Of a DNA stretch of 64,000 bases, positions 2,377-55,811 are shown piece by piece (the first letter of the stretch is position 1; every line of letters begins with the position of its first letter). The notes beneath the pieces were generated by a model. That model saw only the letters and a program-made list of their open reading frames with translations, made no database searches and had not been told where the DNA came from. Source of the stretch: Shigella phage ESh27; sequence record ON528737. One strand, written 5' to 3'. Position numbers and translations under genes: made by a program.

Positions 2377-2850
2377 ATGATTATCAATGAAAACTCTTGG
2401 CATTTTAAAATTTATGCAGCGTTCAATAGTACATGGAATCGTCCGAAAACGTTGTGTGCTTATTTTTGGAAAACGTTAATCCCGGTATTGGCTGTTTCAA
2501 TTATTGGATTTGCGATTTTAGCAGCAGTCATAATCATTGGCCATGAAATTTTAACTAAATTCTTTGTTTTTAGCAGTCTATGGACATTAGTTCCAGCCTC
2601 AATTGGTGTAGGCATTTTAATTGTAGCAGTCATGGCTCTTATTTCTGTTGGGTTGATAATTGGTCCGTCTTGGTTGTTAGACAAATATAACGACAGAAAA
2701 TATTATAAAGAAATTGAGCTCATTGCACAAAACCAAGAACGAATTAAAAATGGACTTGAGCCTATTGAACGTAAGAAATCATTAATAGGTGAATACCTTA
2801 AATCTCGTAAAGAAAAAGTCTGTCCTACTCTTGAATATAAGGCTAAATGA
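2377..2850 (+). CDS. hypothetical membrane protein
   Basis: 157 aa with several hydrophobic helices. Confidence 0.6.
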   Translation: MIINENSWHFKIYAAFNSTWNRPKTLCAYFWKTLIPVLAVSIIGFAILAAVIIIGHEILTKFFVFSSLWTLVPASIGVGILIVAVMALISVGLIIGPSWLLDKYNDRKYYKEIELIAQNQERIKNGLEPIERKKSLIGEYLKSRKEKVCPTLEYKAK

Positions 2851-3836
2851 TGAAAACAATTATGAAAGGCTACTTTGGTAGCCACCTTTATGGAACGTCT
2901 ACTCCTGAATCTGACGTCGATTTTAAAGAAATTTATGTCCCTCATGCTCGTGATATCTTGACCGGTAACGTTAAAGAACATATGAGCAAGAACACGAATA
3001 ACACATCTTCTAAGAACACAAAAGACGACGTGGACCATGAGTTGTATAGTCTCAAATATTTCTTTAAACTAGCTGCAGATGGTGAAACTGTCGCATTAGA
3101 TATGCTTCACACTCCACCAAGTCTAGTAGTTAAATCTGATTTGCCTGATGTATGGAAGTATATTCAAGACAACAGGTCTCGTTTCTATACCACTAACATG
3201 AAATCTTATTTAGGGTATGTCCGTAAGCAAGCTTCTAAATATGGCGTCAAGGGTTCTCGTCTGGCTGTTCTCCGCCAAGCCCTTAAACGTTCTAATGAAT
3301 GGGGACAATACTTTGATAATGGTGCAGTAATTCGTTTATCACATATGAAGAATGTTCTGCCTGTAGGTGAATTTGCTTCATGGGTTGAAACTGAAAACGA
3401 GAAAACAGGTAAGCAAACATTCTATAGTCTGTTGGACCGTAAATTCCAAGACACGTTAACCAATAAAGAGTTCAATGCCATCCTGGTTAAACTTGAAGAG
3501 AACTACGGTGAACGTGCTCGTAAGGCAGAAGCCAATGAAGGTATTGATTGGAAAGCATTGAGTCACGCATGCCGTGGTGGACTTCAGCTCTTAGAAATTT
3601 ACAAAACCGGCGACCTGGTTTACCCGCTTCAGGATGCTCCATTTATTCTCGATGTTAAGCTTGGTAAACATACGTTTAAAACCGTACAGGAATTCCTAGA
3701 AGATATCGTCGACCAAGTTGAACATGCCGCAGAACAAGCCGCTAAGAATGGTATGCAGCAAAAAGTAGATATGAGTTTCTGGGATGACTTCCTTGAGCAA
3801 GTCTACTTAGAAAACCACAATTCATACTATAAATGA
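2847..3836 (+). CDS. putative nucleotidyltransferase (Pol-beta superfamily fold)
   Basis: 329 aa; N-terminal GS-x9-SDVD motif (GSHLYGTSTPESDVDF) typical of minimal nucleotidyltransferases. Confidence 0.6.
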   Translation: MMKTIMKGYFGSHLYGTSTPESDVDFKEIYVPHARDILTGNVKEHMSKNTNNTSSKNTKDDVDHELYSLKYFFKLAADGETVALDMLHTPPSLVVKSDLPDVWKYIQDNRSRFYTTNMKSYLGYVRKQASKYGVKGSRLAVLRQALKRSNEWGQYFDNGAVIRLSHMKNVLPVGEFASWVETENEKTGKQTFYSLLDRKFQDTLTNKEFNAILVKLEENYGERARKAEANEGIDWKALSHACRGGLQLLEIYKTGDLVYPLQDAPFILDVKLGKHTFKTVQEFLEDIVDQVEHAAEQAAKNGMQQKVDMSFWDDFLEQVYLENHNSYYK

Positions 3837-4192: not shown

Positions 4193-4229
4193 ACCTATCG
4201 AAACGAAATGAGTAAATTTGGAGAATAAA

Positions 4230-5210
4230 ATGTTCAACGTTCAAATCAAAAAAGGTATCTATCGTAATAACGAAATCTCTGGTTCTTATGTTGCCACAAA
4301 GACATGGTTCCCGGCAAAGCTTAATCCTGAATGTTCCCACTTAGGTGACGGTAAAATTTTCGTTATGATTGATGGTTCTGAACGTGGAGTATGGGTCTTC
4401 AAATCAGACATCGTAATGGAAGGAGTTGAGACATCACCAGTTGCAGTTATTGAAAGCGCTGAAGATATGAAAACTCGTATCAACAAACGCTTTAAAGTAA
4501 TGAACATGATGACGAATGGCATTATCGATGGCAAAATTCGTTCACTCATTATTTCAGGTGCAGCAGGTATTGGTAAGACGTATTCTCTGGATAAAGCACT
4601 TAATAATGCTAATGATAATGGTTTCATCAAATACAAAAGCATTAATGGCAAAATCTCTGGTATTGGCCTTTACGAACAACTTTGGCTCAACCGTGATGCA
4701 GACAGCGTTCTCTTAATCGATGACGTTGACGTATTCTCAGATATGGATATCTTGAACCTTCTTAAAGCAGCATTAGATACTGGCGATAAACGCAAAGTTT
4801 GCTGGAGCACTGCATCATCTTATCTTGATGATAAGGGTATCGATAAAGAATTTGAGTTTGAAGGTACTATCGTTTTCATTACAAACGTTGATATCGATAA
4901 AGAGTTAGAACGCGGTTCGAAACTTGCTCCACACCTTCAAGCTTTAGTATCTCGTTCAGTGTATTTGGACCTTGGAGTACACTCTAATGAAGAGATTATG
5001 GTCCGAGTTGAAGATGTAATATTATCTACTGACATGATGCAGAAACGTGGTCTGACTGATGCTGAAACGTATAAAGCATTGTCCTGGATGAAGGCTAACA
5101 TATCTCGTCTTCGCAATGTATCATTACGTACGGCTCTTTATGTAGCAGATTTTATTTCAACTGATAAAGACGGTTGGGAGGAAATCTCCGAAGTAACTTT
5201 ACTGAAATAA
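4230..5210 (+). CDS. P-loop ATPase (AAA-like)
   Basis: 326 aa; Walker A GAAGIGKT and Walker B VLLIDDVD. Confidence 0.65.
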   Translation: MFNVQIKKGIYRNNEISGSYVATKTWFPAKLNPECSHLGDGKIFVMIDGSERGVWVFKSDIVMEGVETSPVAVIESAEDMKTRINKRFKVMNMMTNGIIDGKIRSLIISGAAGIGKTYSLDKALNNANDNGFIKYKSINGKISGIGLYEQLWLNRDADSVLLIDDVDVFSDMDILNLLKAALDTGDKRKVCWSTASSYLDDKGIDKEFEFEGTIVFITNVDIDKELERGSKLAPHLQALVSRSVYLDLGVHSNEEIMVRVEDVILSTDMMQKRGLTDAETYKALSWMKANISRLRNVSLRTALYVADFISTDKDGWEEISEVTLLK

Positions 5211-5668: not shown

Positions 5669-5694
5669 GACCTATCAACTACTGGAGGTAAAAC

Positions 5695-6222
5695 ATGAAC
5701 GCTAAAGATATTTTCAACCTGGTAAATTATAACGACGGTAAATTTAAATCTGAAGCACAAAGCAAGTTCTTTAATGACGTTGCTTATGGTAACGAGATTA
5801 CCGTGGACGGAGGTCAGATTTTCAAATCTCGCTGGAATTGGATTGTTATCATCGATTCGATTGGAATTGTGGAAGTCTACAAAAACACTAACAAAAAACG
5901 TACATTATTCTGGTCTCGTGAAACTAACGAGCAGTACAAAAAGGATAAAGCATCTCGTTTATCCAAAGTAACCAAGGAAGATATCGAGTTTATCAAGAAA
6001 GATATCGAGATGTACGAAAATTTAATCGCTGAAGACCAGGCAGTACTCGATAAGTTTGATGAAATTAAAGCTTCTCGTGAAATCCCTGACTTCATGAAAG
6101 AAACAGTAAACGAACGATACGCTCTCACTTCAGAACGTATTGCAAACTATACAAAACAGAAATCAGAACGTATTAGTACTCTTCGGAAATTTGAAGAACG
6201 TTTAAAGACGGTTCACGCATAA
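5695..6222 (+). CDS. hypothetical protein
   Basis: 175 aa; GGAGG SD. Confidence 0.6.
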   Translation: MNAKDIFNLVNYNDGKFKSEAQSKFFNDVAYGNEITVDGGQIFKSRWNWIVIIDSIGIVEVYKNTNKKRTLFWSRETNEQYKKDKASRLSKVTKEDIEFIKKDIEMYENLIAEDQAVLDKFDEIKASREIPDFMKETVNERYALTSERIANYTKQKSERISTLRKFEERLKTVHA

Positions 6223-6284: not shown

Positions 6285-7280
6285 ATGAGCATTACATCTG
6301 ATGCGGTAAAACATGAAATTAACGGTTTATGTGCTTCACAGATTAAAGTGTGGTTTAAAGACCATAACGATCGCAGAGCACTTAATTATGAGCAAATTGC
6401 TATCCAAGTTCATCAATTACTGACTAGTAAATTTGATTTTCATATGCCGTCTGAAATCTATACTAATCTGCCGCGAGCACTTATTAAAGCGTGTAAAGGT
6501 TATGGAAAATCAATGGCTGATGGAATCTTCAGCGCGCTGAATAAACTTAACGTTCTGTCGATGATTAACTCTAACAACATCCTGCGTAATCTAGGACGTA
6601 CTGATTTGTTCGGTCGTGAACAGTGTAAAATGCCTTTGAAATGGATCGTTGCTCATCTTAACGAGAACCAAACACGTTTTATGGCTGTAACAGCACGTTT
6701 ACAAATGGGCCTAGATCGTCAGATGAACTTTAAAACTCATCCACGTTATTCAGGTTCAACAGACTTTTATAAATGCGAGCTTCAAAAGGTCGGTGGCAAA
6801 ACTGTCTTAGTAGTTCGTGTAACGTTTGAAGGACGACGTCAAGGATATTTTGACATAATCGGCTCTGGACTTAAACATTGCGGATTTATCGACGAAGTTG
6901 ATATCAAGCGAGACGGCATTGGATACCGTATTGGATATGTTTGTACTCTTAAAGAAGAGATTTCAGGACCAGCACCAGGACTAAAAGACGTTAGATATAA
7001 AGACGAGCTCGTCGAAGAAATAAAAGAAGTTGAATATGATATCAACCAAGAAGATGCTCTTAAAGACCTTATTGATGAACTGAACCAAGACGTTATTCCG
7101 GTTCAGAAATTTGAATCAAAACATGCTGAGCAAATCAAATACTTTGAAGCTTTGATTAACGAACTTAATGTAACTATTCAACAGACCGACGATGAAATCT
7201 CACGATTGGCCGGATTGAACGGCAAAAATAAAACAGAACGAGCTAATCTTATTCAAGTAGTAAAACTTCTTAAGGAATGA
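6285..7280 (+). CDS. hypothetical protein with C-terminal coiled coil
   Basis: 331 aa; heptad-rich charged C-terminus. Confidence 0.6.
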   Translation: MSITSDAVKHEINGLCASQIKVWFKDHNDRRALNYEQIAIQVHQLLTSKFDFHMPSEIYTNLPRALIKACKGYGKSMADGIFSALNKLNVLSMINSNNILRNLGRTDLFGREQCKMPLKWIVAHLNENQTRFMAVTARLQMGLDRQMNFKTHPRYSGSTDFYKCELQKVGGKTVLVVRVTFEGRRQGYFDIIGSGLKHCGFIDEVDIKRDGIGYRIGYVCTLKEEISGPAPGLKDVRYKDELVEEIKEVEYDINQEDALKDLIDELNQDVIPVQKFESKHAEQIKYFEALINELNVTIQQTDDEISRLAGLNGKNKTERANLIQVVKLLKE

Positions 7281-7309
7281 TGTACAACCAAGGATGGTTG
7301 GAGTATAAT
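7281..7309 (+). promoter_or_regulatory. early-type promoter within stem-loop
   Basis: TGTACA-N17-TATAAT; core caaccaaggatggttggagtataat repeated at 8305 and 49382. Confidence 0.5.
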
Positions 7310-7335
7310 AAATTTTTCAACATGAGGAATATAAA

Positions 7336-8295
7336 ATGGCTCCTATTACACGTAGAGAACTTATCAAAGAATTTACCTCGAACGCATATACCCCAGGACC
7401 TAATCCTATCCGTATGCCTGTAAAGACACCTGAAGAGATTGAGGAAATCTGTTCATATTATGGGATTAATTCTCGTAAGTTTACTCAATTTGAATGTGTT
7501 ACTAACACACCCGTTAAAGAGTTCATTAAAAATGGTGAGTTCAGCCGTTTACTGGCCAAACAGAAACTTCGTAATTTTTGTATTGGCGGTTATGGACAAT
7601 ATTTCGCTAAGCAGTTCCGGAATAACCTTAACAATCTGATGGCCATTGCTTCTCGTATTCGTCCTCAAGCAATTAACATGAAACATTTGAAATATACTTA
7701 CGATAAGTTGGAAATCATGGTTATCAGTGAGAACGAGTTCACTCTTACGTATAAACCTAAGAATGATAACGTTGCTCGTGTATTCCACCAAGCGTTGGAA
7801 GTTTTAGGTGATAATATCCACGAGATTAAAGCAATTTATTCTCGTGAGCTTAATATTATCGACGTTATCAAGAATAAGGGCCATATCGCTATCCAGGCTC
7901 GTGTATCTATTGGTAAAAAGGTTCCTGCGCCATGGTGGCACAAAGACTCTGAATACTATCAAAATCTTAAAAAGGAAAATGCATTGTTTGAAGGCAATAT
8001 TACAGCAACACCAGTCGGTAATGCAGAGGTTCTAGGCGCATATTCTCCGGCACAATCTGGTATGTTTAAAGGTTTGCCAAATGTGTGCAAACTGTCGGCA
8101 GTAAAACTAAATGTTTCTAATGACCTTCTTCCGGCTGAAGATTATCATTACAATCAAATCAAGGCTACTGTAGACCAACTGTCTGCTGAACTTGATAAGG
8201 CACAAGCTAAGCTTCGTGATGCTCAACAGGTGGTGACCAATCTCCAGTTGCAGTACTCTAAACTTTTTAACGCAATGAATGCATTAAAATCATAA
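7336..8295 (+). CDS. hypothetical protein with C-terminal coiled coil
   Basis: 319 aa. Confidence 0.6.
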   Translation: MAPITRRELIKEFTSNAYTPGPNPIRMPVKTPEEIEEICSYYGINSRKFTQFECVTNTPVKEFIKNGEFSRLLAKQKLRNFCIGGYGQYFAKQFRNNLNNLMAIASRIRPQAINMKHLKYTYDKLEIMVISENEFTLTYKPKNDNVARVFHQALEVLGDNIHEIKAIYSRELNIIDVIKNKGHIAIQARVSIGKKVPAPWWHKDSEYYQNLKKENALFEGNITATPVGNAEVLGAYSPAQSGMFKGLPNVCKLSAVKLNVSNDLLPAEDYHYNQIKATVDQLSAELDKAQAKLRDAQQVVTNLQLQYSKLFNAMNALKS

Positions 8296-8299
8296 ATCA

Positions 8300-8329
8300 G
8301 TTTACAACCAAGGATGGTTGGAGTATAAT
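8300..8329 (+). promoter_or_regulatory. early-type promoter within stem-loop
   Basis: GTTTAC-N18-TATAAT; same 25-mer core as 7285 and 49382. Confidence 0.5.
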
Positions 8330-8357
8330 GAATCTATCTTAACGAGAGGAAAATATT

Positions 8358-9302
8358 ATGACGCGTTCACATTACATTGAATACTTTGCCGGTCTTATCG
8401 CTAACGTTCGTGCCCAGCGCGCCGTTGGTGCACTAGGATTTGATGTTCCACACCGAGATGTAGTAAGTGGTATTCTTCGCGATTTTGGTACATACACAGG
8501 CCAAGAAAACCATATCTGTAAAGATACTCAGAATGCGTATTCTCATTCATTAGGGACACTGCTTCAATGGTTCAAACGTTCTCGTTTATTATCTTCTACT
8601 GTAGCTCGCGATAACATTAAAAACTTTATGAAGCCGAGCTTTATTAAATCTGTGACATCTAAAACCGATTTGGTTGAATTCACTATTGTTAATGATGTTA
8701 AAAAGGCTCATTTGGCCGATTGGTTATCTACCATTCCTGAAACTAAATTTGCCGATAAATTTGCTTGTGAATTCAACAACCAAGTGAATATGCTTTTTAA
8801 ACATTCTCGTAAATTATTCACAGGCGGTGATGGTCGTACAAATAAAGTTCATGTTAAAGATTGGGTTACTGCAGTATTCAAACCAACCGGTAATGGTAAC
8901 GCATCATTATCAATTGATATCCAGGTTCCTTATTACTACTCACGTAATCTCGGTACCATGAAAGCCGAAGAAATTAATAAGCACAACAAAACCGTTCGTT
9001 CATTGTCTTATAAACTCCTTGTGATGTTACAGACTATGGATGTTGTTGAAATGTTTGACGAAACCGAAGATAACGGTTCAATGTTATTCAGTTCTCGAAT
9101 TCGAATTAAACTGAAGAACCCTAATGTGTTTAAGCCTATTAAAGAACCTAAAGCAGAAAAGGTCGATATCATGGCTGAAGAACGTGAGTACCTCAAATCT
9201 CGTCTGAAAGAAGTCGAAGCCCAGATTGCAGAACAAACTAAATCGTTAAAAGCTCTGAATGCGAAAGCTGACGGTTTACGAAATGCCATTGAGGTGTTAT
9301 AA
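8358..9302 (+). CDS. hypothetical protein with C-terminal coiled coil
   Basis: 314 aa. Confidence 0.6.
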   Translation: MTRSHYIEYFAGLIANVRAQRAVGALGFDVPHRDVVSGILRDFGTYTGQENHICKDTQNAYSHSLGTLLQWFKRSRLLSSTVARDNIKNFMKPSFIKSVTSKTDLVEFTIVNDVKKAHLADWLSTIPETKFADKFACEFNNQVNMLFKHSRKLFTGGDGRTNKVHVKDWVTAVFKPTGNGNASLSIDIQVPYYYSRNLGTMKAEEINKHNKTVRSLSYKLLVMLQTMDVVEMFDETEDNGSMLFSSRIRIKLKNPNVFKPIKEPKAEKVDIMAEEREYLKSRLKEVEAQIAEQTKSLKALNAKADGLRNAIEVL

Positions 9303-16977: not shown

Positions 16978-17535
16978 ATGACTGAACAAAAACCTAAAAA
17001 TAACTATGTGAATAATAAAGAGCTTCTCGCTGCTATAATCGAGTGGAAAAAGGAGCTCTTAAATAATAAAGACCCAAACAAAATTATTCGTCAGAATGAT
17101 ACCATAGGTTTAGCAATTATGCTTATCGCCGAAGGCCTGTCCAAACGTTTCAACTTTTCAGGATATACCCAGTCTTGGAAGCAGGAGATGATTGCAGATG
17201 GGATTGAAGCCTCTATTAAGGGACTTCATAATTTCGACGAAACTAAGTACAATAACCCACATGCATACATAACTCGAGCTTGTTTTAATGCTTTTGTCCA
17301 ACGTATCAAAAAAGAACGTAAGGAAGTTGCAAAGAAATATAGTTACTTCGTTCATAATGTCTACGACAGTCATGACGATGATATGGTAGCGTTGGTAGAT
17401 GAAACGTTTATTCAAGACATCTACGATAAAATGACGCATTATGAAGAATCCGCTTATAAAGCTCCTGGGGCTGAAAAGAAGGAAGTTGTTAGCGATTCGC
17501 CTAGTTTGGATTTTTTATATGAGGATGACAATTGA
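16978..17535 (+). CDS. 55: late-transcription sigma factor gp55
   Basis: 185 aa; matches remembered T4 gp55 (YVNNKELL...[24 protein letters not shown]). Confidence 0.85.
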
Positions 17536-17734
17536 CATCTCTAACTACTTAGAAGAACCTTTTGACGAAGCAATCCCTTATTTGGTAAAACTGTTGGGTC
17601 GTGAATTTAAAATTAATTTTGACATCGACCCTTTGAACCCACATGACGTGTCATTTTCGATAAATGGGACTCCAGTTGAGTACGAGTTCTGTATTGAAGA
17701 GGATGGACGTTTTTATTTTAATTTAATGAGATAA
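17519..17734 (+). CDS. hypothetical protein
   Basis: 71 aa; start uncertain (17519 or 17525). Confidence 0.4.
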
Positions 17735-17735
17735 T

Positions 17736-18059
17736 ATGACTACCGAGATTATTGAAAATAAAGAAGCAGAAGATGCAGTAGCTAAAATGCTACAAGAAAT
17801 ACAAAAGAAAAATGAAGCTGAAGCACGTAAAAAATCCGAAAAGATTCTTAAAAAGAATCGTTTCGAACTAAATCGACTTTATGCTCATGCTCAAGAAGCA
17901 GCAATTCAAAACAACTTCGAAGCTTACGAATATGCTATTAAGAAATCTCGGGATATTCTACGACAACCATATAATGACAAGTTAATTAAAATCCAGTGGG
18001 TTACTACTCGTCAGGCTATTGAGGACATTATTAATGGCGCTAGTTCAAACAAAGTTTAA
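17736..18059 (+). CDS. hypothetical protein (coiled-coil)
   Basis: 107 aa. Confidence 0.5.
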   Translation: MTTEIIENKEAEDAVAKMLQEIQKKNEAEARKKSEKILKKNRFELNRLYAHAQEAAIQNNFEAYEYAIKKSRDILRQPYNDKLIKIQWVTTRQAIEDIINGASSNKV

Positions 18060-18240
18060 ACGTCTGAATCTGAACGCAGGGTTCACCCTTAAATTGGGAG
18101 GTCCTCTTTGTGTTAAAATTTCCGAAAAGGAATATCACGACGGTTCTATTACAGAAATTTGTCCGCCTATTGTAAAGGCAGACCCAAAACAACTCGTGTG
18201 GGTTGATTCATTTCAAGTTAAGAAATGGTGGAAACGATGA
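18034..18240 (+). CDS. hypothetical protein
   Basis: 68 aa; GAGGA SD 8 nt upstream. Confidence 0.4.
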   Translation: MALVQTKFKRLNLNAGFTLKLGGPLCVKISEKEYHDGSITEICPPIVKADPKQLVWVDSFQVKKWWKR

Positions 18241-18376
18241 TAACTTGGACAGGTGGCTAATGAAAGACGAACACCCGGATTTTTAAGCTTATGAATGACA
18301 AATACGAAAAAGTTTAAGGGGTCATATGAATGACGAATTTGACGGATTTTGATAAGATTAAATCTGATAAAAATGA

Positions 18377-18502
18377 GATGATACTTCAATTTGAAGCCGC
18401 TCGTATTAAAGCAGAAAATGAAGGTACTATTACCCGTAAGAAAATCAAGTTCAGGTATAGTCACGAACCTCTATACGGTGTATTAATTGGAAAGGAAGCC
18501 TA
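18377..18502 (+). CDS. hypothetical small protein
   Basis: 41 aa read by eye; weak SD; terminator immediately after. Confidence 0.25.
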
Positions 18503-18518
18503 GTGCTTCCTTTTTTTT
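18491..18518 (+). terminator. rho-independent terminator
   Basis: ggaagc-ctagt-gcttcc followed by TTTTTTTTT. Confidence 0.6.
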
Positions 18519-18566
18519 TGCTTTATATTCTGGATGATAAAATGAACCAACTAATGAGGAAAACAT

Positions 18567-18710
18567 ATGATTATATTTTTAGGTGTGACTATATTGATAT
18601 TAGCCTTCTATCTATTCACTAGGGCGTGTTGGATAGGTTTCTTTAGTACCCCAGATGGATTAATTTCTGTGGTTTTATTTTGCATTGCGATAACGGCGTT
18701 AGACTTATGA
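18567..18710 (+). CDS. hypothetical small membrane protein
   Basis: 47 aa, hydrophobic; GAGGAAAA SD; ATGA overlap with gene 47 start. Confidence 0.35.
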   Translation: MIIFLGVTILILAFYLFTRACWIGFFSTPDGLISVVLFCIAITALDL

Positions 18711-19726
18711 AAATTTTACATTTAGGTGACTTCCATATCGGCGTTAAACAGGACGACCCATGGGTTCAAGATATTCAACGTGATGGTATTCGTCAAGCAA
18801 TTGAATACTCTAAGAAACACGGGATTAAAACTTGGATTCAGTACGGTGATTGGTTTGACGTCCGTAAAGCAATTACACATCGTACAATGGAATTCAATCG
18901 TGAAATCGTTGATATGATTTCTAAAGCAGGCATTCACGTTCATGTCACGATAGGAAACCATGACATGGCGTTTAAGAATACAATAACACCTAACACTGTT
19001 TCTGAATTGTTAACACAATTTGAAAACTTTACTATTTACGAACATCCAACTACTGTAGATTTTGACGGATGTCTGATTGATATCGTTCCGTGGATGTGTG
19101 AAGAAAATACAGGTGAAATCTTAGAGCATATCAAGACTTCTTCTGCTGCGTATTGTGTTGGACACTGGGAACTGAACGGCTTCTATTTCTATAAAGGAAT
19201 GAAGTCTCATGGGCTTGAACCTGATTTCTTAAAGACCTATAAACAAGTCTGGTCCGGCCACTTCCACACAATCTCTGAAGCTGCTAACGTCAAATATATT
19301 GGGACACCATGGACCCTTACTGCAGGTGACGAGAATGATCCTCGCGGATTCTGGGTATTTGACACTGATGTTGAACGTATGGAATTTATTCCTAATGAAA
19401 CAACATGGCATCGACGAATCACTTATCCGTTTAAAGGCAAAATTAATTATTCTGATTATACTAATCTAGCCGTACGTGTTATAGTATCAGAAATTGATTC
19501 AGAGTTGACTAAGTTTGAATCTGAACTTGAAAAAGTAGTTCACTCTCTTCGTATGGTTTCTAAAGTTGATAACAGTGTTGAATCTGATGACGACCAGGAA
19601 ATCGAGATTAAATCACTTCAAGATATCATTAAAGAATATATTGACGCGATTCCAGATATCTCAGACGAAGACAGAGAAGCGCTGGTCAAATATTCCAACG
19701 AACTTTATATTGAGGCAACACAATGA
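18707..19726 (+). CDS. 47: recombination nuclease subunit gp47 (Mre11/SbcD-like)
   Basis: 339 aa; metallophosphoesterase motifs (LGDFH, GNHD); matches remembered T4 gp47. Confidence 0.85.
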   Translation: MKILHLGDFHIGVKQDDPWVQDIQRDGIRQAIEYSKKHGIKTWIQYGDWFDVRKAITHRTMEFNREIVDMISKAGIHVHVTIGNHDMAFKNTITPNTVSELLTQFENFTIYEHPTTVDFDGCLIDIVPWMCEENTGEILEHIKTSSAAYCVGHWELNGFYFYKGMKSHGLEPDFLKTYKQVWSGHFHTISEAANVKYIGTPWTLTAGDENDPRGFWVFDTDVERMEFIPNETTWHRRITYPFKGKINYSDYTNLAVRVIVSEIDSELTKFESELEKVVHSLRMVSKVDNSVESDDDQEIEIKSLQDIIKEYIDAIPDISDEDREALVKYSNELYIEATQ

Positions 19727-28097: not shown

Positions 28098-28733
28098 ATG
28101 AAAACTACTCCTATTACTATCGCTATTGACGCAATCATAAAACAAGCTTCTTCTTTGGCCGCTATGGCCAAAGTAATTAGTCAAAACCCTGCTCGTTATA
28201 ATGTTATTCTAGAAACACTTCGACGCCCTGGACTGAGTAATTATGAAAGTCGTGTAATTATTACAGGTGTTGGTAAGAACGCTAATATCGCAACTAAAGC
28301 TTCTGAGACATTTGCTTCACTCGGTATCCCAAGTATGTACTTGAACACCGGGCATTATTCTCACGGTGATGCAGGATTTATTGCGCCTAATGATGTGTTG
28401 ATTCATATTAGTCGTTCTGGTAAGACTGAAGAAATGATAGGTGTTGCTAAACATCTTCGTATGATTCGTCCTCAGGTTAAACAGATTCTGTTACATTGTA
28501 ACCCTGACATTCCACAAGAATACGAAGCTCTTTTTGATTATACGTTCTGTACCGGTATCGCGGTAGAAGTTGACGAGAACTCTTTAGCTCCGACTATGTC
28601 CACTACATTGTTGTTAGCGCTTATCGATACGTTTGCTATCAACCTTTCGTCTGAACGTGGATTTACCTCTAATGACTTCCTTAAGTTCCACCCTGGCGGT
28701 GCACTAGGTGCCATGTTACGAGGCGAACAATGA
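28098..28733 (+). CDS. SIS-domain sugar-phosphate isomerase (KdsD-like arabinose-5-phosphate isomerase)
   Basis: 211 aa; GVGKNANIATKASETFASLGIPS...HGDAG...ISRSGKTEE matches the KdsD/GutQ SIS-domain pattern; no CBS domain. Confidence 0.7.
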   Translation: MKTTPITIAIDAIIKQASSLAAMAKVISQNPARYNVILETLRRPGLSNYESRVIITGVGKNANIATKASETFASLGIPSMYLNTGHYSHGDAGFIAPNDVLIHISRSGKTEEMIGVAKHLRMIRPQVKQILLHCNPDIPQEYEALFDYTFCTGIAVEVDENSLAPTMSTTLLLALIDTFAINLSSERGFTSNDFLKFHPGGALGAMLRGEQ

Positions 28734-28873
28734 AAGCAATAACAATAGGACTTTTACTATTGATGCTTGTCATGACTATCTACTGGAGCTTAACGGCTCC
28801 GGTAATGATTCCAACACTTGTAATTGGATGGATTATGATTGGTCTACAGGCAAAGTATGAATGCTTTAACTAG
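28730..28873 (+). CDS. hypothetical small membrane protein
   Basis: 47 aa, two hydrophobic segments; ATGA overlap with SIS gene stop; read by eye. Confidence 0.35.
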   Translation: MKAITIGLLLLMLVMTIYWSLTAPVMIPTLVIGWIMIGLQAKYECFN

Positions 28874-28914
28874 AATAGTGTACAATACACCTACTTACCA
28901 ATGAGGACTTCAAC

Positions 28915-30600
28915 ATGAAAAAAGCTGTTATTCTTGGTGCTGGATTGGCAACTCGTTTATATCCAATTACTCACCATATTCCAAAAGTTCTTGTGAACTA
29001 TAAACAAGACACTATTCTGAGCAATTTGTATACAATTTATTCTGACCTTGGCGCAGATGAAATTATTGTAGTAGTTCATTCAAAATTTGCTGAAACCGTT
29101 CGAGCTTATTGTGAGCAAGAAGGGTTCAATGTGACTATTCGTACAGTTGATGAAGCGTATGGTTCTGCTTATGCTCTTGCTAAATTACACAAAGATTTAG
29201 ACGGCCATAACGTAGTTGTTAACTGGTGCGATATTATTCCTGATTTTGGTTCATGGTCTTGGAATGTTAACGCAATCTATGTTAAGGGTGATGAATGTCG
29301 ATATAATTTCGATGGTGAAAATATCACTAACGTAGGTTCAACAGGCGGTAATGTTGTAGGAATTTATCAGTTCAAAGACTGGGAATTCTATATGGGTTCT
29401 ACTGATGAGGAAATTCATGAATACTGCAAAGGACGTGATTTCGTAGAATTCCTTTACAGCAGCGCATTCAATAAATCAGAGCTTATGAATCTAATTGATT
29501 TAGGTGATATGCCTAAACTTGAAAAAGCTCATGAAGTTCGTGAACTTAATCGTAGTTTTAATGCAGTTGAAATTGGTGAAGAAACTGTAACTAAATTCGC
29601 ATTAACTGAACAAGGTCGAGCTCTTCAAAAAGATGAGATTTCATGGTATTTGAAAGTGAAATCAGATTCAGTCCCTCAGTTAGTTTCTGTTAATGAAAAT
29701 AACTTTGAAATGGAACGCATTAAAGGTAAGCCAGCATTTGAATATATTAAATCCAAATCAAGTCTTGCTCGTCCACAAATTGTTGATGCAATTTTAGATG
29801 CACTGAAATTCAGCACAGACATTTATTTTGTAAGTCCTGAAACTGTTCGTCGTGATTTCACTAAAGAATTCTATACGAAAGTTATTGATCGTTGTGAAAG
29901 CATTCAACCATTGATTGATTCATTTGGTAAAATCACACATGTGAACTACACTAAGATTGGACGTCTGAAGCCAATGCTGAAACAAGCTTTAGAACATCTT
30001 ATTCGTTATCATAACCGTTCTCAGGGACAGTACTCTGTTATTCATGGTGACCCAAACTTCAGTAATACTATGATTACCGATAACGGCGAAGTCAAGTTTA
30101 TCGACCCTCGTGGATATTTTGGTGAAACCAAGATTTACGGGCCAAAATTGTATGATGAAGCTAAAGTGCTTTATGCTGTTTCAGGTTATGATGAATTCAA
30201 CGCTAATCCGACCTGGGGCCAGTTTATTATTGATGAAACAACTTGTAATGTGACTATTAACATCAATCCATTAGTTTACAAATATGGAAAGATGAGTTCG
30301 TTTAACGAGTATCATCATTTGGCAGTGGCAATTATCTGGATTGCATTAGGTGGTTATTTCAAGAATAATCCACTTAAAGCGGTAGCCGCATATTATAAAG
30401 GTATGGAACTTCTAACTAAGCAATTACGTAACATGGGCCGTGTACTTCAAGATGGCTCTATTAGTTATGACGTAGCAGAACCTGTAACGGCTACTCTGAT
30501 TACAAAAAATCCTGGTAAATGGGTACTAACTGATAAAGAAACTGGTGTTTCCTATCGTCCAATCGGTGGCGATATCACTCATCAATGGGAACGAATCTAA
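28915..30600 (+). CDS. bifunctional sugar-1-phosphate nucleotidyltransferase / sugar kinase (putative)
   Basis: 561 aa; N-terminal GxGxR nucleotidyltransferase motif (AVILGAGLATRLYP...PKVLV); C-terminal APH/choline-kinase-like HGDPNFSN...FIDPRG. Confidence 0.7.
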   Translation: MKKAVILGAGLATRLYPITHHIPKVLVNYKQDTILSNLYTIYSDLGADEIIVVVHSKFAETVRAYCEQEGFNVTIRTVDEAYGSAYALAKLHKDLDGHNVVVNWCDIIPDFGSWSWNVNAIYVKGDECRYNFDGENITNVGSTGGNVVGIYQFKDWEFYMGSTDEEIHEYCKGRDFVEFLYSSAFNKSELMNLIDLGDMPKLEKAHEVRELNRSFNAVEIGEETVTKFALTEQGRALQKDEISWYLKVKSDSVPQLVSVNENNFEMERIKGKPAFEYIKSKSSLARPQIVDAILDALKFSTDIYFVSPETVRRDFTKEFYTKVIDRCESIQPLIDSFGKITHVNYTKIGRLKPMLKQALEHLIRYHNRSQGQYSVIHGDPNFSNTMITDNGEVKFIDPRGYFGETKIYGPKLYDEAKVLYAVSGYDEFNANPTWGQFIIDETTCNVTININPLVYKYGKMSSFNEYHHLAVAIIWIALGGYFKNNPLKAVAAYYKGMELLTKQLRNMGRVLQDGSISYDVAEPVTATLITKNPGKWVLTDKETGVSYRPIGGDITHQWERI

Positions 30601-30986
30601 TGCACCGTGTAGAAAACATGCTTAATCTTTGTTTTGATGTCGATGATTGTATAACAGAGTGGAATAACAATCGTGATTATGTGAACTTCAAACCGGACGT
30701 CGAAATGGTGTCCGCCATTAATGCCCTGTATGATGCAGGGCACACCATAACGCTTTACACGGCTCGTGGTATGAAGTCTGTAGGACCTGGTCGTATAGCA
30801 ATTGACATTCTCCCGAGTCTGATTCAGAACTTGGAAAACATTGGTTTGAAGTACCATAATTTGCTAACACATAAACCAGTATATGATTGGATTATCGACG
30901 ACAAAGCTATGCGTCCTGACGAATTCAAAGCTCTTATGAATAAAGGCGAATTCGAAACATTTAAATCATATAAACCGAATCTATAA
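30600..30986 (+). CDS. HAD-like phosphatase (putative)
   Basis: 128 aa; N-terminal FDVDDCIT resembles HAD motif I (imperfect); TAATG overlap with upstream gene. Confidence 0.5.
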   Translation: MHRVENMLNLCFDVDDCITEWNNNRDYVNFKPDVEMVSAINALYDAGHTITLYTARGMKSVGPGRIAIDILPSLIQNLENIGLKYHNLLTHKPVYDWIIDDKAMRPDEFKALMNKGEFETFKSYKPNL

Positions 30987-31043: not shown

Positions 31044-32204
31044 ATGAATACTTTTAAAATCGGAACGAATTTTGATTTAGCTCTTCTTGATAAAATCGTA
31101 GAGCTCAATAAAACCTATCCTAATAGCTTGATAAACGAAGTATATGGCTCTACAAGAGAAATGGCTTTTGTAGCAGCCAGACCTGATTTTAGGCTTCCTG
31201 ACGTCGACAAAAAGATGTTAGAAGACTATGTTAAACGTTGTAACGAATTAGGTATTTGCTTTAACTATACACTCAACACGATAAATCCTGGTTCAAAAAG
31301 AGAACTAGTTGAGTGGAAGAAGAAAGCTATTCAGGATTATGTTCAGTATCTTTGGTCAATAGGCGTATGGCGTATTACTATCGCTAACCCTGTTGTTATG
31401 GAAATTGTTCGTGAAGTCAATAAAGATATTGAGATTGAAGTTTCAACAATTCTACATGTTGATGCCGTAACTCAAATCAAATACTTACACGACCAATATA
31501 ACATCAAAAAGGTCTGCTGTGGAATTCATAAGAACCGTTCAGTTTCTTTCCTGAAGCGTGCAGCAGAGTTTTGCAATAAGAACAATATAATATTTGAAGT
31601 TCTTGTAAATGAGTTCTGTTCTAATGCTGGTAAAGGGTATACAACACATTGTAGCTATCGTGACTCTTGCTATATTTTCCATAGTACTGATGTTACAGCT
31701 GATGATGCTAAATCCTTAAATGGATATCCAATGCAACACTGCATTAAAGCTCGTGATACAGACCCATTTAACTGGCTGAGAACTCGTTTTGTTCGTCCTC
31801 AAGATTTGAAACTTTATAATGATATTGGTATCACTCAATTCAAAGTTTCAGGACGTACAGGTAGCACAGACTACATTTTGAAAGTTCTTGAAGCATACGC
31901 TTCTGAAAAGTTTGAAGGTAATTTGTTAGAACTGTGGAAGCCTTTAGAGACTATTTTCACTCTTGAAAATGAGACTGAGTTTTCACATACAGTAAATATT
32001 GAAACCTCTTTGTTAGATGGCTTTTTAGAAAAAAGGTGGTTCAGACATCCGGATTTTGATTGTGCTAATGAAATCTGTGGGTCAACGTGTACATATTGTG
32101 AAAGATATTATAAACGTCAATTATCTAAAAATGGGTTAGCAGAAAACTCTATATCTATTATTGATATAACTAACTCTGATGACGCTTTGAGGTACCCGGA
32201 ATGA
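31044..32204 (+). CDS. hypothetical protein with Cys-rich C-terminus
   Basis: 386 aa; C-terminal CANEICGSTCTYCERY plus earlier NEFCSNAG...HCSYRDSCY; family not assigned. Confidence 0.6.
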   Translation: MNTFKIGTNFDLALLDKIVELNKTYPNSLINEVYGSTREMAFVAARPDFRLPDVDKKMLEDYVKRCNELGICFNYTLNTINPGSKRELVEWKKKAIQDYVQYLWSIGVWRITIANPVVMEIVREVNKDIEIEVSTILHVDAVTQIKYLHDQYNIKKVCCGIHKNRSVSFLKRAAEFCNKNNIIFEVLVNEFCSNAGKGYTTHCSYRDSCYIFHSTDVTADDAKSLNGYPMQHCIKARDTDPFNWLRTRFVRPQDLKLYNDIGITQFKVSGRTGSTDYILKVLEAYASEKFEGNLLELWKPLETIFTLENETEFSHTVNIETSLLDGFLEKRWFRHPDFDCANEICGSTCTYCERYYKRQLSKNGLAENSISIIDITNSDDALRYPE

Positions 32205-32440
32205 TTTCTAGAAAAACTTTTAACCACCAACTTAATGAAGAGATTTTGACTATAAAACTGAACACTAACGAACAAATTCTTAAAAAGGCCCTGATGGGCC
32301 TGTTTGAAACTAAAGCGGCTAAAGTGATTAAAGAACCTGTTCAACTAGAATATTATGCTGATGCATTTCTTCATAGTGTTCTTGGAAGTATCGATGCTGA
32401 AGCTTTACGTTATATCAACATTGTCAAGAAATTCAAATAA
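32201..32440 (+). CDS. hypothetical protein
   Basis: 79 aa; ATGA overlap. Confidence 0.45.
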   Translation: MISRKTFNHQLNEEILTIKLNTNEQILKKALMGLFETKAAKVIKEPVQLEYYADAFLHSVLGSIDAEALRYINIVKKFK

Positions 32441-32482: not shown

Positions 32483-33199
32483 ATGGGAAAACATAACACA
32501 ATGAAATATATCAAAGCCGCAGATTTTCAAACCGCATTTAAAGCAGTCAATCGTGAAATTTTAGAAAACCCGGAATTCGTAACTGATTCTCGTATTGGAC
32601 GTTGTAATGAAATTGGGTCTATGACCGTAGTTGTTGACACTCCATCATCATTCAAAATGACCGACCCACGTATTAATCGCATCTCTTATGAATATGCCGA
32701 AGACTTCTGGAAGTTTATGATTTCTGGTGGTACCAACGCAGAAGAAGCGTTTAAGGCATATCCTAATGTCGCTAAATTTATTTCTAAACCAAAATCAGAT
32801 GTTTTGCCGGCGAACTTCAACACTTTCTATGGTCCTCGCATTGCGGCCCAATTACCAGCTCTTCTCAAAGAACTTAAAGAGAAGCCTAACTCTCGAAGAG
32901 TTGTGTTCCAAATTCTAGAAAGTTCTGATCAGGCTTTGCTTGATTCAGACGAAACACTTGAATATCCATGTACTGACTCAGTGACTTATTATATTCGTGA
33001 TGGTAAGCTTTATACACACTGTCATATGCGTTCTCAGAACTGTGCTGTTGTTATGCAGTTGGATTTTTATCTCCAAGGAAAATTACTTCATTATATCGCT
33101 AACGAATGTGGTGTAGAAGTTGGTGATTATACTCATACCATGGTAAGTGCCCATGTGTTTGAACGTGATTTTGATTATGTTAAAGGATTCCTTGACTAA
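32483..33199 (+). CDS. 42: dCMP hydroxymethylase gp42 (thymidylate-synthase fold)
   Basis: 238 aa; active-site region PCTDSVTYYIRDGKLYTHCHMRSQNCAVVMQLDF parallels T4 gp42 / thymidylate synthase. Confidence 0.8.
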   Translation: MGKHNTMKYIKAADFQTAFKAVNREILENPEFVTDSRIGRCNEIGSMTVVVDTPSSFKMTDPRINRISYEYAEDFWKFMISGGTNAEEAFKAYPNVAKFISKPKSDVLPANFNTFYGPRIAAQLPALLKELKEKPNSRRVVFQILESSDQALLDSDETLEYPCTDSVTYYIRDGKLYTHCHMRSQNCAVVMQLDFYLQGKLLHYIANECGVEVGDYTHTMVSAHVFERDFDYVKGFLD

Positions 33200-34098
33200 T
33201 GGCTATTTTCCGCGTACCAATCTTGAGTATGCGGTCTTATGAAACTGGACAGTATGCTATCCTTAAGGATGGCAACTTCCAACTTCATTTGCACCGTGCT
33301 AATCCAGGCGATGTGATTACATATCCACGTAATGCATCTGATATTAAAGAATGCGAACGTCTTTTCCCGGAATTTAAGTTTGTTCCATTATGGTATAAAG
33401 ATAACGCGTATAACACTCGTAAATATTTCTGGTCTGAAAACGAATTTGTTGTTGATTCATTAATTGCTTATTATGATTGTGATTTTCTAATCACAGATAT
33501 CACTGGATATGACGGCGCTTTTGATGTAGAATTCAATTTCAATATCACTGCAGACCCTAATAAACCACGTTTTTATATTGACGAATTCTTAAAAACCGAC
33601 ATGTTGTCGGTTAATCGTTCACTTCAAACTACTGTGTTGAATGAACGTCAAAAAGAAGTGCTGGTTAACGCAGGTGCAGACGATAATAAGATTATCGTAA
33701 CGCAGAAAGTTATACGTCCTTCCATCATGCAGCGTCTTGTAGGTGATTTGGCTCCTATTCATGTAGATGGTATTTTTCATCCATTTCGAATTAGTGATCC
33801 GTGTTATCATTTTGAACAAGTGGTTGAATGTGCAATTCAATTAGGTCAACCGCTTTATATAACCGATCCAAATAATAGCTTCGACAGAAATAAGTATCCT
33901 GAAGAAGCGCTGATTCGAATTTTTAAACCAACTAAAACTGAGTACTACCAAATTCTTAAAGGACGTCCGAAGATTCAATATTTCGAAAATCCTGAAGAAG
34001 TATTCCATCCAGGTCTTGGTGAGTTCATCTACTTTAATGCTTTAATTTCTTCGCCGTATAATATACCTAAATACGAAGATGTCGTAATCGAGGAATAA
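33199..34098 (+). CDS. hypothetical protein occupying the beta-glucosyltransferase position
   Basis: 299 aa between gene 42 and uvsX; no recognisable similarity to T4 beta-gt. Confidence 0.6.
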   Translation: MAIFRVPILSMRSYETGQYAILKDGNFQLHLHRANPGDVITYPRNASDIKECERLFPEFKFVPLWYKDNAYNTRKYFWSENEFVVDSLIAYYDCDFLITDITGYDGAFDVEFNFNITADPNKPRFYIDEFLKTDMLSVNRSLQTTVLNERQKEVLVNAGADDNKIIVTQKVIRPSIMQRLVGDLAPIHVDGIFHPFRISDPCYHFEQVVECAIQLGQPLYITDPNNSFDRNKYPEEALIRIFKPTKTEYYQILKGRPKIQYFENPEEVFHPGLGEFIYFNALISSPYNIPKYEDVVIEE

Positions 34099-34099
34099 A

Positions 34100-34648
34100 A
34101 TGGCTAAAATTATTTTAGTAGATGGCCCGGATAATGCCGGTAAAACAACTTTCATTAATGACATAATGGAAATTAGTGAAAGATATGTAAAGATTGATTT
34201 CCCTAAACGAACAGTTGATGGACGTTTCGATGTTAAGTCTCGAAATGAAGTTGGTTGTTTCGAAACGATGTTGAATTATTTAGACCCTACTAAGATTTAT
34301 CTGTTAGACCGTGGATATATTAGTAACTGGGTTTATGGACGTATTCGACAAGATGCGGACTCGGTTCTTGACGTTTATGAACAGGATTATGTTCGTCTTT
34401 GTCAAAACCATGATGTGTTCACAATTATTTTAACACGTAACGAAATGACTGAAAGTTTTGAAGACGACCTTATTACTTTGTCTTCATTCGGTTTTAATAC
34501 AGTCATTTCACATTTTGAAGAGTTTGCAATTCATAACAAAATCCAAACGTATCAATTACTTAATCATGATGGTGCTAACAAAGTTATAGGATTTAATGCA
34601 AGCGAACGTAATGATTTGATTACAGAAATTATCAAATGGGCTCGTTAA
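34100..34648 (+). CDS. P-loop NMP-kinase-like protein (thymidylate-kinase fold)
   Basis: 182 aa; Walker A GPDNAGKTT and DRGY motif like TMPK DR(Y/H). Confidence 0.55.
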   Translation: MAKIILVDGPDNAGKTTFINDIMEISERYVKIDFPKRTVDGRFDVKSRNEVGCFETMLNYLDPTKIYLLDRGYISNWVYGRIRQDADSVLDVYEQDYVRLCQNHDVFTIILTRNEMTESFEDDLITLSSFGFNTVISHFEEFAIHNKIQTYQLLNHDGANKVIGFNASERNDLITEIIKWAR

Positions 34649-39746: not shown

Positions 39747-40040
39747 ATGAAAAAGTTATCATTGGCAGCAATCTTACTTGCAGTATCGTGTGCACCGGCT
39801 CCAGTTACAGCAGGTTATGATAAAGACCTCTGTGAGTGGTCAATGACTGCAAATCAAGAAGATGTTGAACAACAAATCTTCTCTGATATCATGAACATCA
39901 CTAAACGAGACCGTCCTAATATGGTTAATAAAGTTGTTGAACAACTTAAGTCTGGCGGTATCATGCAGTACAACTATGTTTTGTATTGTGACCCTAATTT
40001 CGATAACAAAGATATCATAACCGAAATCACAGGTGAATAA
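39747..40040 (+). CDS. sp: Spackle (periplasmic superinfection exclusion protein)
   Basis: 97 aa with signal peptide; AGYDKDLCEWSMTA...QYNYVLYCD matches remembered T4 Sp. Confidence 0.7.
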   Translation: MKKLSLAAILLAVSCAPAPVTAGYDKDLCEWSMTANQEDVEQQIFSDIMNITKRDRPNMVNKVVEQLKSGGIMQYNYVLYCDPNFDNKDIITEITGE

Positions 40041-40041
40041 T

Positions 40042-40692
40042 ATGATTTATTATATGCACAAAAACGCGCCATTTAAATATGGTAAATTTCCTAATGCACA
40101 ATGTTATAATATAACGCCGAATGAAAATAATAACGGATACCATATTGGTGTAATTTTTGTAATTGTTAAAGATAACGAAATCGTTGCCTGGGCAGATTTT
40201 AAAGGTACAACGTATGACGTTAATCCGGTTCCGTTCACATATTATAATTTAATGGATTTGGCATACGACTATAATTGGTTTACTCATGATACTCTGGCAC
40301 ATGTTGAAGGCGTAGGATTTGACATCTCTTATTCTAGTTATTCATTATGTCCTATGAGCCGAGCTCACGGTAAAGATGTATCATATCTTTCAATTCGGAA
40401 ACGTGTAAACTTCAAACGTAGTACAGAGTATGTTGGTGGACTCTTTGTTAAAGATAATAAAATAACCCGTATTAGTTATCCTTTAAGTGTAGGTCAAAAA
40501 GATGTTGATGTTGATTTAGACTTAACTGAAAATAACATTAATCACATTGCTTCTGTATATTTTGATATCGATGAAAAAATTGTAGTGTGTGGATACGAAT
40601 TACCACCTGAAGAAAAGGCTGAAGCAATTGAAGTCGAATTAGAAATTTCTGTTGATGACCAAATATTTAATGCATTTATGAATCGAGGTTAA
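40042..40692 (+). CDS. hypothetical protein
   Basis: 216 aa; start at ATG 2 nt after sp stop. Confidence 0.55.
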   Translation: MIYYMHKNAPFKYGKFPNAQCYNITPNENNNGYHIGVIFVIVKDNEIVAWADFKGTTYDVNPVPFTYYNLMDLAYDYNWFTHDTLAHVEGVGFDISYSSYSLCPMSRAHGKDVSYLSIRKRVNFKRSTEYVGGLFVKDNKITRISYPLSVGQKDVDVDLDLTENNINHIASVYFDIDEKIVVCGYELPPEEKAEAIEVELEISVDDQIFNAFMNRG

Positions 40693-54710: not shown

Positions 54711-55811
54711 ATGAAAGTTATGTTTATCCCATCTCGCGCAGTCCCGTTTAACCCAGAACGTGTACAAGGTGGTCTTGAAGCAGTACATTTAAATGTGTTG
54801 AAATATCTTGTGTCCATCGGTGCTGATATTGATTATATCGGCTTTGATAATGACACGTTTGGTGACTGGAAAGTTACACACCATCCTGTTGGTCATCTGA
54901 CTAAATTCAGTCTAGGTATGAGTTATACTATGGCTCGTAAGATTGTTGAACTAGCCGGCATTAATGAGTACGATTTCGTTGTTACAATGGAACCGACCAA
55001 ACTAACCGTTCAGGCAATTAAAGACGCAGGTCTCTCTAAAGTTCATAAGAATTTTATGGCAACACCATTTGAACCGGTATCTCGTGGCATTGTTCAAATT
55101 TGGGACCAGACTATTCAAATTCATAAGAATGGTGGTAAGAGTTATGCTCCTACTAAAGCCTTCCGTGAATTTGAACGCAAATATTGTTATATGACTTCAG
55201 GACTGACTGACAAAATTGATTATGATTATTGGCGAGCAAATCCGTTGTTTGAAGCCGAAGATTATCCGGTTATTTGTTTGACTGAAAAACCGGAAGTTCT
55301 CCCAGCAACTGATTTGATTATTAGTGCTCAACGTTATGACACTAAGATGCGTCGTACTGATGTTGCTCTTGAAGCGATTAAAGCATTAGGCGAAAATGGT
55401 ATTGGTTATTGTCCAAGCAAATGGGCACCACCAGCTAAGTATCCTGTTATTATTGATGCTCCACACAGTGAAATCATGGAACGTCTTAAAACAGCTAAAG
55501 CACTTATTAATACGTGTCCTGACACGGGTACGGTAGAGAATAGTTCTATTGAAGCCATCTCTAAAGGTGTCCCTGTAATTCAGTTAGTTTTTAAGGATTA
55601 TCCGCATGCGACATTCGAATATGACCCAGATACTGTGCGTGTAGAAATTGATTCCTCTACTCCTAAGAAAGAAGTAGTTGCGCTTTACACAAAAGCTGTA
55701 TTAGAATTCACTGACACGTACGAAGCTCGAGTTAAACGTGCTGAAGCAGTATGGAAGAAGTATAACCGAGATGCAGTTGTTGCAATGTGGGATAAAATCT
55801 TCACAGCGTAA
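54711..55811 (+). CDS. GT-B fold glycosyltransferase (candidate DNA glycosyl/arabinosyl-transferase)
   Basis: 366 aa; N-terminal MKVMFIPSRAVPFNPERVQGGLEAVHLNVLKYL and C-terminal ENSSIEAISKGVPVI resemble GT4-type GT-B motifs; sits between gene 39 and rIIA. Confidence 0.65.
   Translation: MKVMFIPSRAVPFNPERVQGGLEAVHLNVLKYLVSIGADIDYIGFDNDTFGDWKVTHHPVGHLTKFSLGMSYTMARKIVELAGINEYDFVVTMEPTKLTVQAIKDAGLSKVHKNFMATPFEPVSRGIVQIWDQTIQIHKNGGKSYAPTKAFREFERKYCYMTSGLTDKIDYDYWRANPLFEAEDYPVICLTEKPEVLPATDLIISAQRYDTKMRRTDVALEAIKALGENGIGYCPSKWAPPAKYPVIIDAPHSEIMERLKTAKALINTCPDTGTVENSSIEAISKGVPVIQLVFKDYPHATFEYDPDTVRVEIDSSTPKKEVVALYTKAVLEFTDTYEARVKRAEAVWKKYNRDAVVAMWDKIFTA

Follow-up and report, generated by a model that had tools for sequence, protein, structure and literature searches.

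The 64,000-nucleotide stretch of the Shigella phage ESh27 genome analyzed here (sequence record ON528737; hereafter, the window) contains genes 55 and 47, between which T4 carries, among others, the gene for alpha-glucosyltransferase (a-gt). In our opinion, the window very probably represents a Mosigvirus that has no a-gt and encodes instead a pathway for arabinosyl-5-hydroxycytosine. Judged by analogy with characterized relatives, the DNA of the phage most likely contains arabinosyl-5-hydroxycytosine rather than 5-hydroxymethylcytosine (hmC).

A preliminary description of the region held that the interval between genes 55 and 47 has no a-gt but only five small open reading frames (ORFs) and a terminator, and that the phage, also missing the beta-glucosyltransferase gene (b-gt), does not glucosylate hmC in the T4 manner. 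The first of these claims is borne out: the interval contains only homologues of a-gt.5, a-gt.4, a-gt.3, a-gt.2, and 47.1. Its features are listed below; here and elsewhere, RB69 proteins were compared with the window by tblastn, the T4 gene order is that of NC_000866, and lengths are given in amino acids (aa).

16978-17535, plus strand: gp55, late sigma factor, the upstream landmark (99.5% identity to RB69 gp55, 89% to T4 gp55).
17525-17734, plus strand: a-gt.5 homologue, 69 aa (100% to RB69 a-gt.5; Pfam DUF5491, E 1.4e-12; phrog_1169).
17736-18059, plus strand: a-gt.4 homologue, 107 aa (100% to RB69 a-gt.4; Pfam DUF2654, E 1e-27).
18034-18240, plus strand: a-gt.3 homologue, 68 aa (98.5% to RB69 a-gt.3; phrog_1648, E 1e-33).
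18330-18503, plus strand: a-gt.2 homologue, 57 aa, a divergent allele (Pfam DUF5486, E 1.4e-17; 54% to RB69 and 55% to T4 a-gt.2).
18489-18524, plus strand: hairpin and T-run resembling an intrinsic terminator (terminator scan), with the a-gt.2 stop codon in the loop.
18519-18543, plus strand: MotA-box motif, TGCTTTA, 12 nt, TAAAAT, this copy being conserved in phages Mizar, RB69, SP18, and T4.
18567-18710, plus strand: 47.1 homologue, 47 aa, a small membrane protein (76% to T4 gp47.1; phrog_6693, E 1.6e-27).
18707-19726, plus strand: gp47, SbcD-like nuclease subunit, the downstream landmark (100% to RB69 gp47; Pfam Metallophos).

The five small ORFs are real genes rather than chance ORFs, because all of them match conserved families (PHROGs matches with E from 1e-23 to 1e-37; Pfam DUF5491, DUF2654, and DUF5486). 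Phage Mizar (98% identity) has a T4-based annotation that agrees with the assignments and gives 47.1 two transmembrane segments. The stop codon of 47.1 overlaps the start ATG of gp47 at 18707 (ATGA). According to the ORF list, no ORF of more than 107 aa is present on either strand of the interval; the minus-strand ORFs of 31, 50, and 83 aa are antisense to conserved genes, within a region whose other genes are all transcribed from one strand. The spacer between a-gt.2 and 47.1, where a-gt would be expected, measures 63 bp (18504-18566) and contains no a-gt but only the hairpin and the promoter motif. Four of the ORF sizes reported earlier (71, 107, 68, and 47 aa) hold, the first corresponding to an alternative ATG start of a-gt.5 at 17519, while the fifth needs correction: the 41-aa form of a-gt.2 begins at an internal Met, whereas the 57-aa form is homologous to T4 a-gt.2 from residue 2 onward. 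A full-text literature search found no functional study of a-gt.2 to a-gt.5 or of 47.1. The persistence of these genes without a-gt indicates that their names are positional only and that they are independent of glucosylation.

The absence of glucosyltransferase genes extends beyond the interval. With default tblastn settings, neither T4 a-gt nor T4 b-gt has a match at E<=1 in the window, and neither has one in the complete genome of the relative TH12, from which all RB69 control proteins were recovered. For the window and TH12, this agrees with the statement of the preliminary description that b-gt is missing. T2 ba-gt gave only chance-level matches, with E 0.48 in the window (61807-61980) and E 0.92 in TH12, both inside gene 52, a topoisomerase subunit gene. 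One further candidate, an a-gt match at 4356-4595 (tblastn with word size 2, E 0.006; pairwise BLASTP, 7e-5), was rejected as chance because the alignment runs across the Walker A motif of a P-loop/AAA-like protein (ORF 4218-5210) and the match is lost under default tblastn settings. In a set of 50,697 phage records, a-gt matched at >=80% identity in 504 and at 60-80% in 143, with ten weak matches. The first count is close to the 497 records from Escherichia, Shigella, Enterobacteria, Yersinia, Salmonella, Tequatrovirus, and Citrobacter phages, and the second to the 140 from Klebsiella and Raoultella phages.

It could be argued that an a-gt or b-gt homologue lies in the approximately 105 kb outside the window and that the phage still glucosylates its DNA in the T4 style. 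In favor of this, the window shows no more than part of the genome, genomes of the T4 type are mosaic, and the patch containing a-gt.2 and 47.1 is itself recombinant. Nevertheless, we consider this highly improbable in view of the TH12 search. Moreover, Thomas et al. (2018) found no homologue of a-gt, b-gt, or ba-gt in RB69 (PMC6024577), and the hmC substrate is probably not made, the gene-42 homologue being a predicted 5-hydroxy-deoxycytidine monophosphate (5-hydroxy-dCMP) synthase.

The genes that point to a different modification lie between gene 43 and uvsX, with one further gene beside rIIA. By tblastn, the window encodes the full set of proteins published for the RB69 cluster, with 94-99.5% identity.

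28098-28733, plus strand: arabinose-5-phosphate isomerase, homologue of RB69 gp55 in the numbering of that cluster (97.6% to RB69p055; Pfam SIS; NCBIfam KpsF/GutQ and KdsD, E 1e-30 to 1e-32).
28915-30600, plus strand: putative bifunctional sugar kinase/nucleotidyltransferase (RB69 gp52:53, AfhE-like), 561 aa (approximately 99% to RB69p053 and RB69p052; Pfam NTP_transferase, with weak kinase-family matches in the C-terminal half).
30585-30986, plus strand: HAD-type sugar phosphatase (RB69 gp51, AfhF-like; 98.4% to RB69p051; NCBIfam capsule biosynthesis phosphatase, E 1.9e-13).
31044-32204, plus strand: U32-family protein (RB69 gp50; 99% to RB69p050; Pfam Peptidase_U32, E 7e-11).
32483-33199, plus strand: ThyA-like 5-hydroxy-dCMP synthase in the position of T4 gene 42 (99.2% to RB69 gp48).
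33199-34098, plus strand: GT-B glycosyltransferase, putative arabinosyltransferase 1 (RB69 gp46:47), 299 aa, in the T4 b-gt slot.
34100-34648, plus strand: nucleotide (thymidylate-type) kinase (RB69 gp45; 99.5% to RB69p045; phrog_761, thymidylate kinase).
54711-55811, plus strand: second GT-B glycosyltransferase (RB69 ORF003c/gp3), 366 aa, between gp39 and rIIA (98.4% to RB69p003).

A system of the RB69/HY126 type is thus present in the window, consisting of a 5-hydroxy-dCMP synthase, genes for the supply of uridine diphosphate (UDP)-arabinose, and two GT-B transferases. The ThyA homologue matches the structures of phage thymidylate-synthase homologues 9iqc/9ir2 with E 8e-161 and is only 25% identical to T4 gp42, the dCMP hydroxymethylase, so it does not qualify as a gp42 orthologue. 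Because it is at the same time 99.2% identical to RB69 gp48, most likely no hmC is made. The 366-aa transferase matches the HY126 glycosyltransferase bound to UDP (PDB 9iqz/9ir0) with E 1.6e-248 by sequence, and Foldseek aligns it to the HY126 structure with 98% identity and TM scores of 0.94-0.98. The slot after the gene-42 homologue is occupied by the 299-aa GT-B protein, which is unrelated to b-gt. Both the 299-aa transferase and the 561-aa protein are single intact ORFs, whereas the RB69 record splits them into gp46/47 and gp52/53. The splits have been attributed to sequencing errors (PMC13326640), an explanation supported by the intact ORFs of the window.

The chemistry of the corresponding system is known from relatives. 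RB69 DNA contains mono- and di-arabinosyl-5-hydroxycytosine; RB69 gp48 makes 5-hydroxy-dCMP with oxygen from O2 and an enzyme-bound flavin, and it has been proposed that gp46:47 adds the first arabinose and gp3 the second (PMC13326640). In the same source, the RB69 isomerase, kinase/nucleotidyltransferase, and phosphatase are assigned to the formation of UDP-arabinofuranose by analogy to HY126 AfhE/AfhF (PMC13326640), and the sugar kinase/nucleotidyltransferase role suggested here for the 561-aa protein follows that assignment. The Mosigvirus NicPhage has been shown chemically to contain 5-ara-dC and ara-ara-dC, arabinosylated forms of deoxycytidine (PMC13390438). By analogy, the flavin-dependent ThyA homologue of the window would convert dCMP to 5-hydroxy-dCMP, which would then be incorporated into DNA. 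The isomerase, the kinase/nucleotidyltransferase, and the phosphatase would convert ribulose-5-phosphate to UDP-arabinofuranose, and the two GT-B transferases would add one or two arabinoses to the 5-hydroxyl group. If cytosine is modified by this different pathway, a-gt would not be needed.

Could the two GT-B transferases instead use UDP-glucose, so that the DNA is glucosylated by enzymes without homology to a-gt or b-gt? This appears very improbable, since RB69 and HY126, which have arabinose and not glucose on their DNA (PMC6024577; PMC13326640), possess transferases 98% identical to these, the neighboring genes encode a complete UDP-arabinose pathway, and arabinosyl-dC has been demonstrated chemically in NicPhage. 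The arabinosylation pathway therefore remains our preferred explanation. As to the conclusion that hmC is not glucosylated in the T4 manner, the lack of any a-gt, b-gt, or ba-gt homologue supports it; what it leaves out is that the base is most likely not hmC at all and that the DNA would still be glycosylated.

Several points weigh against the arabinosylation reading or parts of it. What the window itself provides is the gene content, the synteny, the absence of glucosyltransferases, the folds of the transferases, and the near-identity to characterized proteins; the DNA chemistry of this isolate is carried over from the work on RB69, HY126, and NicPhage. The first arabinosyltransferase of RB69 is a proposed enzyme, and in vitro, the individual DLP3 transferases were inactive on DNA containing 5-hydroxycytosine (PMC13326640). 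The window covers 64 kb of approximately 169 kb, and the absence of glucosyltransferases elsewhere is taken from the relative TH12. The terminator and promoter functions discussed below are read from motifs. Finally, the argument that a-gt was lost rather than gained, also given below, is a weak one, given the mosaicism of T4-like genomes and the portable regulatory modules on either side of the slot.

These results have a practical side. A genome with a gene-42 homologue and no a-gt or b-gt should not be annotated as having "unglucosylated hmC DNA". DNA with arabinosyl-5-hydroxycytosine behaves differently toward restriction enzymes, type IV systems, DNA glycosylases, and CRISPR (PMC13326640; PMC13390438).

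By sequence comparison, the window is that of a Mosigvirus, an RB69-like T-even phage. The window is 94-98% identical to the Escherichia phages TH12, CCU7, and Mizar, and in the 55-47 interval all three reach 98% at the DNA level; in 145 records, the coverage of this interval is 80% or more. Over 25 kb, many Mosigviruses share 96-97.5% identity with the window (96.3% for NicPhage), the taxonomy lines read Mosigvirus, and the complete TH12 genome (169,545 bp) is collinear with the window at 90-97% identity. The empty a-gt slot is a documented trait of the genus, because the type phage RB69 shows the same order without a-gt. The earlier observation of the absent gene is correct but ordinary, being already known for RB69-like phages, which as a group carry arabinose on 5-hydroxycytosine in place of glucose on hmC.

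Within the interval, a patch of 466 bp (18241-18706) departs from RB69: a-gt.2 diverges and 47.1 is present, and the neighboring proteins are 98.5-100% identical to those of RB69. At a threshold of 90% identity, the patch occurs in only five records, CCU7 among those listed; the nearest DNA beyond these is 81-84% identical and includes that of TH15, LHE83, and the Gaprivervirus SP18 (84%). Judged from these matches, the patch is ordinary mosaicism, a recombinant segment.

The terminator noted earlier in the interval was recovered as a motif by a terminator scan and by RNA folding. It consists of the hairpin GGAAGC-CUAGU-GCUUCC followed by nine T (minimum free energy of the RNA, -14.1 kcal/mol; z, -3.3). 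The position of the hairpin is kept in RB69, SP18, and T4 with differing stem sequences, and the stems of the aligned phages always pair (GGAAGC/GCTTCC, GGAACTC/GAGTTCC, GGAGC/GCTCC, and GGGC/GCCC), i.e., the changes are compensatory. The adjoining TGCTTTA-12 nt-TAAAAT motif is of the MotA-dependent type that characterizes T4 middle promoters. Fourteen such motifs were observed in the window versus 1.75 expected by chance, and the MotA gene itself is present at 63259-63891. The copy at 18519-18543 would restart transcription into 47.1-47-46. Two further MotA-box motifs, at 28862-28886 and 34038-34062, lie directly 5' of the kinase/nucleotidyltransferase and nucleotide kinase genes, and parts of the arabinosylation cluster may be under middle-mode transcription.

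The module composed of the hairpin and the MotA box occurs once in the window, Mizar, RB69, and SP18 and twice in T4, where the copies follow a-gt.2 and a-gt (minus strand of the T4 stretch compared, 5690-5735 and 3590-3625). The mobB/a-gt segment of T4 is therefore bracketed, like a cassette, by two similar modules, and its removal or insertion could come about by recombination between them. Judged by synteny, the slot has probably, though by no great margin of confidence, lost a-gt rather than never having had it. The Jiaodavirus Mineola (NC_055748) has, in this slot, an a-gt 66% identical to that of T4 and lacks both mobB and 47.1. Its flanking genes are further from those of T4 (gp47, 71% identity; gp55, 78%) than the flanking genes of the window are (76% and 89%, respectively). 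A single ancestral a-gt with losses in Mosigvirus and Gaprivervirus is favored as the more economical history, since repeated insertion at one site would take more events. The alternative, somewhat less probable yet a serious contender, is that the Mosigvirus arrangement is ancestral, a-gt never having been in the lineage, and that T4-like and Jiaodavirus phages each gained the gene. The mobB homing endonuclease beside T4 a-gt and the two near-duplicate modules, which bracket the segment like an inserted cassette, speak for such gains, as does the lack of a-gt in both RB69 and SP18; the a-gt of Mineola, located in the same slot without mobB between more distant flanking genes, speaks for ancestral presence. 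The choice between loss and gain concerns only the history of the slot.

The U32-family gene of the cluster deserves separate consideration. Its product has been called just a "sugar or heterocycle reductase" (PMC13326640). In the window, the protein has Cys 192, 203, and 209 and a C-terminal CX4CX3CX2C motif. All 221 phage records carrying the gene have it at 80% identity or more; the carriers named include no Acinetobacter phage, and the first transferase is found in 342 records, including 57 Acinetobacter phages. In Klebsiella phage PWKp16 (3501-4903 of the stretch compared), a gene for an AroQ chorismate mutase (Pfam CM_2, E 6.7e-10; 39.5 bits versus a cut-off of 27) lies directly between the genes for the U32 protein and the ThyA homologue. 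Chorismate mutases of the PWKp16 type occur in 51 phage records from many genera, and among the 25 matches listed, most have a ThyA homologue or a "peptidase" under or beside the mutase. Among U32 enzymes, RlhA, TrhP, and UbiU/V hydroxylate their substrates independently of oxygen and require prephenate, which chorismate mutase produces.

On this basis, we put forward, tentatively and as a rather unlikely proposal, that the U32 protein may be a prephenate-dependent, oxygen-independent C5-hydroxylase, providing a second route to 5-hydroxycytosine where the flavin- and O2-dependent ThyA homologue fails. If true, this route would serve in O2-poor settings such as the anaerobic gut. Two points oppose the proposal: JS98-like coliphages seem to carry the transferase but no U32 gene, and Mosigviruses have no recognizable chorismate mutase. 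No discussion of a prephenate-dependent hydroxylase role was found in the literature examined. In the window, a 79-aa ORF at 32201-32440 (RB69 p049) occupies the slot of the chorismate mutase between the U32 and ThyA-homologue genes. As a candidate diverged chorismate mutase it was rejected on present evidence: it matches no Pfam family, does not resemble the PWKp16 mutase, and has homologues that are all near-identical (>=81%).

It should be noted that the window contains several other features of interest. An ORF for an RlaP-like nucleotidyltransferase (2847-3836) and the P-loop/AAA-like ORF, which has a weak helix-turn-helix match (4218-5210), lie upstream of the nrd/55.x region. Three consecutive ORFs of approximately 315-330 aa, likewise upstream of that region, occupy 6285-9302, one matching DUF7235 and two having no Pfam match. 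The gene 61 region contains an anti-defense gene at 40033-40692, a homologue of AdfA (anti-DarT factor A; Pfam E 1.3e-119).

Among known systems, T4 (NC_000866, 36.4-40.2 kb) has the order 55, a-gt.5, a-gt.4, a-gt.3, a-gt.2, mobB, a-gt, 47.1, 47. The flanking genes of the window follow the same order, and T4 likewise has a hairpin and MotA-box module after a-gt.2. The gap between a-gt.2 and 47.1, however, is 2,146 bp in T4, where it contains the HNH homing endonuclease gene mobB, the gene for the 400-aa a-gt, and the second module, versus 63 bp in the window, and in T4 hmC is made and glucosylated. SP18 (NC_014595) and Mineola both keep the series from 55 through a-gt.5-.2 to 47, SP18 without a-gt. 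In HY126 (PP658200; 9iqz/9ir0, 9iqc/9ir2/9iqu), the transferase is 98% identical to that of the window, the ThyA homologue matches with E 8e-161, and the U32 protein is 99.5% identical; no difference of note was found at the level of these protein comparisons. RB69 (NC_004928, RB69p071-p066) differs from the window in having no 47.1 and an a-gt.2 only 54% identical. In other respects, RB69 corresponds to the window: it has 55, a-gt.5-.2 (names already used in its 2003 annotation), the hairpin and middle promoter, and 47 but lacks a-gt; its flanking proteins share 98.5-100% identity with those of the window, and its pathway proteins (gp45-gp55 and gp3) share 94-99.5%.

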